A stretch of 64,000 bases of DNA from Amphiura filiformis. Lineage: Eukaryota. The position numbers and the translations under genes were made by a program. Positions 23,397-25,670 of this stretch are shown piece by piece. Position 1 is the stretch's first letter, and each line of letters opens with the position of its first letter. Location of the stretch: NCBI RefSeq assembly GCF_039555335.1, contig NC_092646.1, positions 58,010,946 to 58,074,945 of the forward strand. The letters are read 5' to 3'. Under the pieces are notes generated by a model. It ran no database searches and was not told the DNA's origin. It worked only from the letters and a program-made list of their open reading frames with translations.

Positions 23397-24066
23397 TTAA
23401 GGGCTCGGGTATGAGCGTTTGGACAGTATTTATTGTGGGACATTAGAGCACATCAGACATATCGAATTGCATTCTGAATCTGAAGAATGTCATTCTGATA
23501 TCAAATAATTTTGGTTTTTTGAAATTCGCAATTTAATACACATTTTATGGCAAATCATTAAAAATTGATATTTTTGATATTTAACAGTACTCGAAGTAAA
23601 CTTTATAAATCTGATGATTTATACTTAATGTGTATGTAGGTGGGATGAAATGCCGACGATCAATTGAAAATTTTGACTTTTTGTATTGAAGATATGGATT
23701 TTTTTCCCAAAACACCAAAAAAAATTAGGTCTTTTTGGGAAAAAAATCTATATCTTCAATATAAAAAGGTCAAAATTTTCAATTGACCATCGGCTTTTCC
23801 TCCCTGCTACATACACTTTAAGAATATATCATTAGATTTATATAATTTACTTCGAGGACTGTTATATATCAAAATTTGAAAAATATCAAATTTTATAATT
23901 TGTCATAAAATTTGTATTATATTGTGATTGTCAAAAATGAAAATTATTTGATATCAGAAAGACATGTTTCAGTATTCAGAATGCAATTCGATAGGTCTGA
24001 GGTGCTCTCATGTCCCACAAAAAAATACTGTCGAAACTAATAAACGCTCATTTTAGATCCCTTAAG
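23397..24066. mobile_element. Foldback element family B (about 670-bp near-perfect palindrome)
   Basis: The left half is the reverse complement of the right half (cttaagggctcgggtatgagcgtttggacagtattt ... aaatactgtcgaaactaataaacgctcattttagatcccttaag). Confidence 0.8.
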
Positions 24067-25464
24067 TAACACTTGAGCATAGTTTTTTTCCCTCAGCACT
24101 CTTACCTGGTGTCTTGGTCGACCTACTATACTTGGAAAGACTGCCCTGGGTGCATCGTCACCAGCAAACCCTGCCTTGGGCAATTCAGGGTCACACCATC
24201 ATTGCCTATTTTAAATTCAGGGTTCAAAGGGTTTTGTCACACTTTAGCGTAGTTTTTTTCCCTCAGCACACTTACCTGGTGTCTTGGTCGACCTACTATA
24301 CTAGGGAAAACTACCCTAGGTGCATCGTCACCAGCAAACCCTGCCTTGGGCAATTCAGGGTCACACCATCATTGCCTATTTTAAATTCAGGGTTCAAAGG
24401 GTTAAGTAACACTTGAGCATAGTTTTTTTTCCTCAGCACACTTACCTGGTGTCTTGGGCGACCTACTATACTTGAAAAGACTGCCCTGGATGCATCGTCA
24501 CCAGCAAACCCTGCCTTGGGCAATTCAGGGTCACACCATCATTGCCTATTTTAAATTCAGGGTTCAAAGGGTTAAGTAACACTTGAGCGTAGTTTTCTTC
24601 CCTCAGCACACTTACCTGGTGTCTTGGTCGACCTACTATACTAGGGAAAACTACCCTAGGTGCATCGTCGCCAGCAAACCCTGCCTTGGGCAATTCAGGG
24701 TCACACCATCATTGCCTATTTTAAATTCAGGATTCAAAGGGTTAAGTCACACTTGAGCGTAGTTTTCTTCCCTCAGCACACTTACCTGGTGTCTTGGTCG
24801 ACCTACTATACTAGGGAAAACTACCCTAGGTGCATCTTCGCCAGCAAACCCTGCCTTGGGCAATTCAGGGTCACACCATCATTGCCTATTTTAAATTCAG
24901 GATTCAAAGGGTTAAGTCACACTTGAGCGTAGTTTTCTTCCCTCAGCACACTTACCTGGTGTCTTGGTCGACCTACTATACTTGGAAAGACTGCCCTTGG
25001 TGCATCGTCGCCAGCAAACCCTGCCTTGGGCAATTCAGGGTCACACCATCATTGCCTATTTTAAATTCAGGGTTCAAAGGGTTAAGTAACACTTGAGCAT
25101 AGTTTTTTCCCTCAGCACACTTACCTGGTGTCTTGGTCAACCTACTATACTAGGGAAAACTACCCTAGGTGCATCGTCGCCAGCAAACCCTGCCTTGGGC
25201 AATTCAGGGTCACACCATCATTGCCTATTTTAAATTCAGGGTTCAAAGGGTTAAGTCACACTTGAGCGTAGTTTTCTTCCCTCAGCACACTTACCTGGTG
25301 TCTTGGTCGACCTACAATACTTGGAAAGACTGCCCTGGGTGCATCGTCACCAGCAAACCCTGCCTTGGGCAATTCAGGGTCACACCATCATTGCCTATTT
25401 TAAATTCAGGGTTCAAAGGGTTTTGTCACACTTTAGCGTAGTTTTTTTCCCTCAGCACACTTAC
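24066..25464 (-). repeat. Tandem array of about 8 copies of a 170-bp unit, each holding the last 75 bp of exon E5 plus the first 95 bp of its intron; the authentic exon/donor junction is the ninth copy
   Basis: The motif cctcagcaca recurs every 170 bp, at 24261, 24431, 24601 and onward to 25449. Each unit translates to [24 protein letters not shown] followed by gtaagtgtgctgagg. Confidence 0.85.
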
Positions 25465-25670
25465 CTGGTGTCTTGGTCGACCTACTATACTAGGGAAAAC
25501 TACCCTAGGTGCATCGTCACCAGCAAACCCTGCCTTGGTCGTATCAAGCCCAAGGTCAATAACCACCACTGCTACATCTTCATCGTCAGGTGATAGCTCT
25601 TCCATTACTGTTATAGGTGGTGGCGGTGGTGGTGCAGGAATGTCAGGTGGTATTCCAGAGGATGCCAAAT
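25465..25670 (-). CDS. Exon E5: proline-rich linker plus actin-like N-terminal segment ([69 protein letters not shown])
   Basis: [24 protein letters not shown] is the actin N-terminal signature. The donor CAG|gtaagt falls exactly at the conserved actin codon-41 intron position. The acceptor is tcttcatctag|. Confidence 0.6.

Follow-up and report, generated by a model that had tools for sequence, protein, structure and literature searches.

A probable junction-spanning minisatellite that reiterates a candidate 5' splice site within a predicted mosaic gene of the brittle star Amphiura filiformis

How the end of an exon, together with the 5' splice site (donor) that follows it, can come to be repeated many times inside the adjoining intron, and what the repeated donors could do, are questions raised by a locus of the brittle star Amphiura filiformis. 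The locus lies in a stretch of 64,000 nucleotides (NCBI RefSeq assembly GCF_039555335.1, contig NC_092646.1, positions 58,010,946 to 58,074,945 of the forward strand), which as a whole is called the window here and along which all positions are counted. On the minus strand of the window, the end of an actin-like exon, E5, and its donor are repeated with a period of 170 bp within the intron that separates E5 from the next actin-like exon, E6. The reading that we favour, and consider reasonably probable, is that of a young local intronic minisatellite, whose first monomer lies across the exon/intron junction and which would have arisen by slippage or unequal exchange and been homogenised by conversion, the additional donors (pseudo-donors) being by-products.

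Tandem Repeats Finder (TRF) reported, as the sole array here, positions 24062-25538 with a period of 170, 8.7 copies, 93% matches, no indels and a score of 2590, which is far above chance. The coding sense of the array is the minus strand, and a tblastn search with a full-length actin query showed nine peptide copies, variable between V and A, each of which is then followed by GTAAG. The units were aligned in a register that starts at the K18 codon, and in this register each unit is laid out as 72 nt of exon end, the donor, 45 nt of intron and a 53-nt tail (Table 1). The first unit, u1, lies across the predicted junction of E5 with the intron and is continuous with E5, the final 72 nt of which (25536-25465) form its exon part, and units u2 to u9 are all found between E5 and E6, where the array covers just the first 1.4 kb of the 3.9-kb intron. 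Both TRF and the unit alignment thus bear out the original prediction of a nine-fold head-to-tail 170-bp array with its extra copies inside the E5-E6 intron, while the claim of eight extra copies stands for the exon end and the donor, which occur nine times, and not for the ninth unit, which is truncated. The donor 9-mer is CAGGTAAGT in eight of the nine units and CAGGTAAGA (GTAAGA) in the ninth, so that an intact donor, said to be kept by every copy, is kept at eight sites. The 9-mer CAGGTAAGT is the full donor consensus and is complementary to the 5' end of U1 small nuclear RNA (snRNA). The coding part was supposed to be open in all copies; in u3, however, a CGA to TGA change (IVG*PRHQ) gives an in-frame stop, and the same unit has a single-base deletion within an A-run. 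The amino-acid variants of the array are V29/A29 (A in four units), D to E in u5 and two P to S changes in u7, in place of the R/A and V/F substitutions first described.

Table 1. Positions of the array, its units and donors, and the exons and frame breaks of the predicted host gene
Feature	Positions	Strand	Detail	Basis
170-bp tandem array	24062-25536	minus		TRF, unit alignment, pairwise and lag identities
Unit u1	25536-25367	minus	donor G at 25464	unit alignment
Unit u2	25366-25197	minus	donor G at 25294	unit alignment
Unit u3	25196-25028	minus	169 nt, in-frame TGA; donor G at 25124	unit alignment
Unit u4	25027-24858	minus	donor G at 24955	unit alignment
Unit u5	24857-24688	minus	donor G at 24785	unit alignment
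Unit u6	24687-24518	minus	donor G at 24615	unit alignment
Unit u7	24517-24348	minus	donor G at 24445	unit alignment
Unit u8	24347-24178	minus	donor G at 24275	unit alignment
Unit u9	24177-24062	minus	truncated 45 nt into its intron part; donor G at 24105	unit alignment
Authentic, most upstream 5' splice site	25459-25464	minus	GTAAGT; 9-mer CAG/GTAAGT, full consensus	sequence; conserved actin codon 41/42 intron position
Eight reiterated pseudo-donors	24100-25294	minus	seven CAGGTAAGT (G 25294 to 24275), last CAGGTAAGA (G 24105)	
Candidate exon E4	25918-25979	minus	62 nt, ISKEQKCPNLVEALRLYFHE	splice sites; in-frame join to E5
Exon E5	25465-25670	minus	206 nt; Pro-rich lead-in and actin-derived codons 1-41 (ATG 25605-25603)	tblastn, splice sites, Pfam
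Unique rest of the E5-E6 intron	21584-24061	minus		no similarity to repeat unit
Exon E6	20416-21583	minus	1168 nt; actin codons 42-75 (21583-21482), Pro-rich, FG-like repeats, poly-Q, RefSeq coding sequence start	tblastn, splice sites
Apparent +1 frameshift	20911-20912	minus	extra A; CGATTAAGTAG vs CGATTAGTAG in the preceding 114-bp repeat copy	repeat comparison
A8 homopolymer where the frame returns	20647-20654	minus	A9 restores continuity	open reading frame repair
Annotated part of the host gene	3832-20772	minus	RefSeq XP_072018545.1 (= P0121, 645 aa, 'uncharacterized protein')	protein search and mapping

Minisatellites whose first monomer spans an exon-intron boundary, with reiteration of the donor, have been described in human F7, IFI6 (6-16), CBS, lamin B2 and PDGFA (PMC1557585), so that the original prediction's view that no such case had been described does not hold for the class. 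The monomer is 37 bp long and present in 5-9 copies in intervening sequence 7 (IVS7) of F7 (Borensztajn et al. 2006, PMC1557585). As cited in that report, there are 25 pseudo-sites in IFI6/6-16 (Turri 1995), a 31-bp variable number tandem repeat (VNTR) with 15-20 repeats at the exon/intron border of CBS IVS13 (Yang 2000; Lievers 2001), a 100-bp monomer with 10-15 copies in lamin B2 (LMNB2; a 1997 study) and an 81-bp monomer with 16-18 copies in PDGF intron 4. The brittle-star array is likewise an intronic head-to-tail array of a monomer in the range of 10-200 bp and likewise reiterates a donor, and its first unit is continuous with an open predicted exon of 206 nt, over which no coding sequence (CDS) is annotated. 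Judged by sequence for the first monomer, the array belongs to this known class. Among the cases cited there, lamin B2 is the closest one in unit size and copy number, with which the array shares a long monomer (100 vs 170 bp), a junction-spanning first monomer and about ten head-to-tail, donor-bearing intronic copies, the differences being the larger exon share of the brittle-star unit (72 nt clearly, and probably about 110 nt), its perfect-consensus donors and its echinoderm host. F7, which provides the model of upstream-donor selection, is similar in that the first monomer spans the exon 7/IVS7 boundary and identical pseudo-5' splice sites come after the authentic one, but in F7 the exon contributes no more than 4 nt to the monomer, the splice sites, with a consensus value of 74, are weak, and copy number is known to be polymorphic. 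By the account given in the same report, lamin B2, PDGF and F7 transcripts are spliced from the authentic donor alone, and the first two pseudo-sites are used as well in IFI6 and CBS (PMC1557585); for F7, usage has been tested experimentally. A junction-spanning repeat that reiterates donors is common to IFI6, CBS and the brittle star; unlike in the two human genes, however, the 170-bp units yield no alternative proteins, whereas a 75-bp array further upstream, to which we return below, does stay in frame past its donor.

Head-to-tail exon sequence inside a gene is also a property of tandem exon duplications and mutually exclusive exon arrays. These, however, repeat a whole exon with its own acceptor and keep the frame, whereas here a credible acceptor is missing from the unit, and 170 nt do not make a whole number of codons. 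The pyrimidine fraction at the internal AGs of the unit is 0.65 or less, and one weak AAG acceptor alone gives an in-frame exon, of 69 nt. Use of the units as cassette exons or mutually exclusive exons was rejected as unlikely on these two grounds and on that of the stop in u3.

The original prediction had taken the unit to be the last 75 bp of the exon plus the first 95 bp of the intron, and both figures had to be changed. The exon part is 72 nt long, and the 53-nt tail, which had been counted as intron, has no counterpart in the unique intron that follows the array (anchored alignment, P > 0.5), while it gives a weak, collinear alignment with E5 codons ~5-17, just upstream of K18 (position-anchored P 0.014-0.05). 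An unanchored local alignment of the tail against either flank was not significant (P ~0.38). If the register is set as 53-nt tail, 72 nt of exon and 45 nt of intron, there are exactly nine copies, the first of which has native exon sequence for its tail, and in this tail-first register the right flank of the array is unrelated and the left flank is weakly homologous. Since the tail resembles E5 codons ~5-17 and is missing from the downstream intron, the segment that was first duplicated probably, on modest support, began near codon 5 of the exon and reached as far as intron position +45, which would leave 45 nt of original intron in each unit and not 95.

A sequence of events that could lead to the present arrangement would begin with an intron-containing actin gene, whose 5' end (codons 1-75, interrupted by the intron at codon 41/42) would have been copied at the DNA level and built into a lineage-specific mosaic gene. 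The segment of ~170 bp described above would then have been duplicated in tandem, and growth to nine copies would have followed via replication slippage or unequal exchange between sister chromatids or homologues, a route of amplification that we infer from the array as it stands. Gene conversion within the array would keep the copies alike, exchange would still take in the exon copy, and the outcome would be an authentic CAG/GTAAGT donor followed by eight pseudo-donors, one per 170 nt.

The pairwise divergence of full units, a per-copy measure that had been suggested with the original prediction for dating the array, has a mean of 5.0% and a range of 0-8.8%, in comparison to a heterozygosity of 3.22% in A. 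filiformis (PMC11310086). Units u1 and u8 are identical at 170/170 nt, and the exon copy thus matches an intronic unit. The self-identity of the array is 94.1% at a lag of 170, 95.5% at a lag of 340 and 97.6% at a lag of 1190, showing a partial 340-bp periodicity. The units are of two subtypes, which run V A V A V V A V A along the array and are told apart by five substitutions packed in a 16-nt stretch that corresponds to actin codons 27-32 (25437-25452, with its equivalents in each unit). The A-type patch reads CCC AGG GCA GTC TTT CCA. This V/A patch is unlinked to the other common variants (unit sites 18, 91, 99 and 110), and the units are therefore mosaics, as exchange within the array predicts. 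Among the changes found in single units, four are non-synonymous (the stop included) and three synonymous, a pattern that is close to neutral and is that of neutral decay of the copies. The mean divergence relative to the heterozygosity, the identity of u1 with u8 and the mosaic variants suggest that the array is young and that exchange is ongoing, which is typical of a minisatellite. Of the explanations offered at the outset, the footprint of unequal crossing-over is accordingly the one favoured by the local array, the low divergence, the mosaic variants and the identical pair of units.

The V/A patch has a further property. Four of its five substitutions are synonymous and the fifth toggles V29 and the canonical A29, an excess of synonymous changes with P(>=4/5 synonymous) = 0.016, so that a short tract of gene conversion may be suspected here, with a functional actin paralogue as its source. 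Template switching at a quasi-palindrome was also considered as its source, the V-type having a perfect CTAGGG...CCCTAG inverted repeat, and was rejected, as both arms differ between the subtypes, which is not expected from the correction of a single arm. With regard to an origin of the unit elsewhere, no other copies of the unit or of its intron part were found within the 64-kb window, which over this stretch agrees with a local origin and gives no sign of a dispersed satellite, and no Rfam family or transfer RNA (tRNA) matched the array, for which reason an origin from a short interspersed element (SINE), a tRNA or another non-coding RNA was rejected.

It could also be supposed that mis-assembly, or the merging of haplotypes, in a highly heterozygous nanopore assembly had given rise to the array or to much of its copy number. 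The assembly was built with Flye from R9.4.1 reads, with Racon polishing, as a diploid assembly that was later purged (PMC11310086), and the identity of u1 and u8, the 97.6% identity, 1190 nt apart, of the ~1.7 units at either end of the array and the one-base deletion in the A-run of u3 would all agree with such an origin. However, the 1.5-kb array is far shorter than the reads, with a coverage of ~100x, and the variants are structured and shared (two subtypes, mosaic sites) and are no random noise. In addition, u2 and u9 differ at 6/117 sites, so that the ends are not a simple duplicated join, and a 170-bp periodicity is not producible by consensus errors. We therefore hold an artefact of this kind to be extremely improbable.

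Whether the repeated donor belongs to a working exon depends on the gene around it. E5 shares 72.5% identity with actin over aa 2-41 and E6 85.7% over aa 41-75 (tblastn), and the Pfam Actin match (1.2e-15) covers profile positions 2-67 of 410 only. The tblastn search with full-length actin (PF00022, ~375 aa) matched only residues 2-41 and 41-75 and nothing else actin-like in the window; a complete actin fold is not encoded at the locus, where only actin residues 1-75 are present. The phosphate-binding loop DNGSG(M/L) is not intact, E5 having DLGLDT for DNGSGM (expected VVDNGSGMCKAGF), and several invariant actin residues are altered in E6. By its sequence the host locus is not an actin gene, and the term actin-derived exon, used in the original prediction, is right as to the similarity with actin residues 1-75 and misleading as to the gene, which is a mosaic, non-actin one. 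Along the host gene (3832-25979, minus strand) there are actin residues 1-75, tracts rich in proline, FG-like repeats (38-aa repeats in E6 that form a 114-bp tandem at 20817-21120), poly-Q and a fragment of an Hsp70 substrate-binding domain (Pfam HSP70 positions 378-557, exons ~8891-7496), without the Hsp70 or actin ATPase core. Two paralogous exon pairs were also noted on the minus strand, ~19312-19199 with 17226-17107 (DDDLLEALQSG.../MPLAKPSSPGIVHRKVFG...) and ~16482-16342 with 14261-14112 (DDMPEVMLDMS.../IPLAKPSSPGIVHRKVFG...); both are present in the RefSeq protein, and their arrangement indicates a tandem segmental duplication of ~3 kb inside the annotated gene. Judging from this composition, the host is a lineage-specific mosaic gene of housekeeping-gene fragments with a strong tendency towards internal tandem duplication. 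Within one intron of the annotated gene lies a tRNA-like sequence (17618-17690, plus strand), the sole Rfam match in the window (35.1 bits, gathering score 29), which may be a tRNA gene or the tRNA-derived head of a SINE.

E4, E5 and E6 have good splice sites and are joined in frame. The acceptor and donor of E5 are tctatcttcatctag/ATTTGG and CACCAG/gtaagt, those of E6 are ttataattactgcag/GGAGTG and CGTCAG/gtgagc, and the intron between the two lies exactly at the conserved actin codon 41/42 position. Since the intron has been kept at this position, the fragment would be a DNA-level copy of an intron-containing actin gene, and it is plausible from these features that E5 is a used exon. Upstream of E4, the interval from 33790 to 25979 was scanned for a further exon whose splice sites would fit in phase, and no candidate emerged; the upstream gene model is therefore incomplete. 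The unique part of the E5-E6 intron also contains a palindrome resembling a miniature inverted-repeat transposable element (~23663-23790), which recurs at ~30349-30514, and two tandem copies (~23013-22795 and 22569-22315) of an interspersed repeat (translation ...IPVEIHTPPMEDMTLISHTGSVNFKW...) that occurs at least eight times in the window, for example at 37469-37287, 33805-33638, 32919-32661, 28629-28492 and 18652-18473.

The annotated protein, XP_072018545.1, was the sole protein returned by a search with the non-actin exon pieces and comes from A. filiformis itself (60-Mb scaffold). Its CDS starts at a Met (20772) downstream of the first of the two frame breaks in E6 and skips the second via a 35-nt 'intron'. 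When both breaks are edited, by dropping the extra A and by lengthening A8 to A9, a 478-codon open reading frame (ORF) without a stop is obtained, in frame with the next annotated exon. The assembly was made from Nanopore R9.4.1 reads by flye with Racon polishing and has a QV of 31.6, i.e., ~1 error per 1.45 kb (PMC11310086), and at this rate a pair of indel errors, one of them in a homopolymer and the other within a repeat, is nothing unusual. The two single-base edits are typical of nanopore errors, and the RefSeq model is probably 5'-truncated, and its 35-nt 'intron' is probably a device that steps over an assembly indel.

The same region can be read differently. The actin-like piece could be a decaying pseudo-exon and the array an ordinary repeat in non-coding DNA (an upstream region or an intron of the 5' untranslated region), in which a fossil exon end and donor happen to be contained and no splicing takes place. 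All annotated proteins retrieved lack E4, E5 and the start of E6, RefSeq beginning at the Met inside E6; E6 has two frameshifts as assembled; the change of DNGSGM to DLGLDT, the replaced invariant residues in E6 and the neutral decay of the copies point the same way. Against this, the frames of E5 and E6 are open for 86 and 236 codons, with good splice sites and an in-frame join, and both frameshifts stand at nanopore-error-prone sites, cancel each other exactly and bring the reading back into frame with the annotated CDS, in an assembly where ~1 error per 1.45 kb is expected. On balance we regard a pseudo-exon as unlikely. When the conceptual E4+E5+E6 product was used as the query of a homology search, ordinary actins dominated the output, and the top matches were mis-merged tandem actin gene models, which are irrelevant here.

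If E5 is spliced, the question becomes which of the nine donors is used. Read-through past the authentic donor meets a stop after 12 codons, and every other donor likewise runs into a stop. Given these stops, and a unit length of 170 nt that is not divisible by 3, any downstream donor would lead to a premature stop, and protein isoforms are excluded; the suggestion that the array serves as a set of alternative donors does not hold as far as a source of proteins is concerned. Recursive (ratchet) splicing at CAG/GTAAGT was also rejected as unlikely, since the 20 nt upstream (TAGTAGGTCGACCAAGACAC) are 40% pyrimidine and have no pyrimidine tract. In the F7 minigenes, the most upstream functional site was chosen and pseudo-sites competed only with a perfect consensus match; engineered perfect-consensus pseudo-sites were 70-90% efficient, and a weaker most-upstream donor was still used (PMC1557585). 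By analogy, it is most likely that the most upstream donor of the brittle-star array is used, and that the downstream sites are silent or give a minority of premature-stop transcripts, which would then be degraded.

A function of the repeated donors may nevertheless be imagined. The array could act as a battery of sites for the U1 small nuclear ribonucleoprotein, either as decoys or competing donors in regulated unproductive splicing, or by recruiting U1 so that a long intron is guarded from premature cleavage or definition of the upstream exon is aided. The full 9-nt consensus CAGGTAAGT is kept in eight of nine sites while other positions of the unit vary, perfect-consensus pseudo-sites did compete in F7 minigenes (PMC1557585), and a second GTAAGT-bearing array lies on the same strand of the same locus. 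However, the donor occupies 9 of the 170 nt, and with units 91-100% identical overall no selection is required to keep it; in the last copy +6T is gone, one copy carries a stop, and in the human cases treated in the cited report the pseudo-sites are mostly silent (PMC1557585). Taken together, these observations make a functional battery very unlikely.

Several points weigh against a young minisatellite at the end of a used exon, with by-product donors, and have to be set beside the evidence above. The copy number and the single-base details come from one nanopore assembly; exact look-ups of the E5 ORF, the E6 ORF and XP_072018545.1 gave no independent sequence of the array among assembled contigs, and searches with array-specific peptides, on both strands, for read-level or transcript contigs gave no matches. 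With two frameshifts in E6 as assembled, the 5' region that holds the actin-like part could be dead, and E4, E5 and the actin part of E6 were found in no annotated protein retrieved by homology search. The synonymous bias of the V/A patch is left unexplained by simple neutral amplification. Finally, since perfect-consensus pseudo-sites competed in F7 and the sites here are perfect, the first donor need not be the only one used.

The second junction-type array mentioned above lies ~9 kb upstream (34316-37130, minus strand) and has a 75/78-bp unit in ~36 copies (TRF), 29 of which have an exact GAA/GTAAGT. GTAAGT occurs 48 times on the minus strand of the window, 37 of these in the two arrays, vs 15 times on the plus strand. 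The first donor of the 75-bp array, at 36995, closes an ATG-initiated ORF of 135 nt (37130-36996, MKDEDKKEMKAVDIEELLRKEEIDTLTYMGWEPTKSPPGQPQTLE), whose end, in phase 0, fits a candidate exon at 33936-33790 that likewise starts in phase 0. In contrast to the 170-bp unit, the 75-bp unit is a multiple of 3 and is open for 246 codons, so that downstream donors would add in-frame 25-aa repeats, although the array could equally be a plain coding repeat. It is tempting to combine the two arrays and to propose that both are used, variable donor choice in the 75-bp array leading to a variable number of 25-aa repeats, competing donors of the 170-bp array setting the fraction of productive mRNA, and conversion between intron and exon, of which the identity of u1 with u8 and the V/A patch would already be signs, diversifying or repairing the exon. 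We consider this combination highly improbable; if it were true, the locus would be a natural 'splice-donor VNTR' gene and would put to the test, in vivo, which of several identical optimal 5' splice sites the spliceosome selects.

Further repeats and reading frames were observed elsewhere in the window. Two satellite blocks of the same family, at 44154-46622 and 59528-62383, lie ~13 kb apart and are built of 75- and 100-bp sub-units (GGGTGATTGGCCTCAATGTGAGGTAGAATACACAATGTG...) in higher-order periods of 175, 275 and 375 bp with 98-100% identity. Two upstream ORFs were found on the minus strand, at 61216-61557 and 62385-62753, one of which has a MYND zinc finger (Pfam 5e-08). The other, of 122 aa (…VSVEWQQFDNHAPRPIQAPSQITSLFSGSRQVVYGYVPFC…), had no Pfam match; it may resemble the region after the VWA domain of VWA5A-like proteins.

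The array has no known selected function and its class has already been described, and its general significance is therefore limited; what sets it apart from the lamin B2 case is the large exon share of the unit, the perfect-consensus sites and the echinoderm host. For the annotation of the gene, the repair of two indels would explain the probable truncation of the RefSeq model. If E5 is used, nine near-identical optimal 5' splice sites, 170 nt apart, face one acceptor, and the locus would be a natural counterpart of the F7 minigene test, in which the effect of position vs strength of donors could be read from RNA-seq. The end of a coding exon and its intronic copies would moreover evolve in concert, and exchange between them can import variants, a stop codon included, into the exon.

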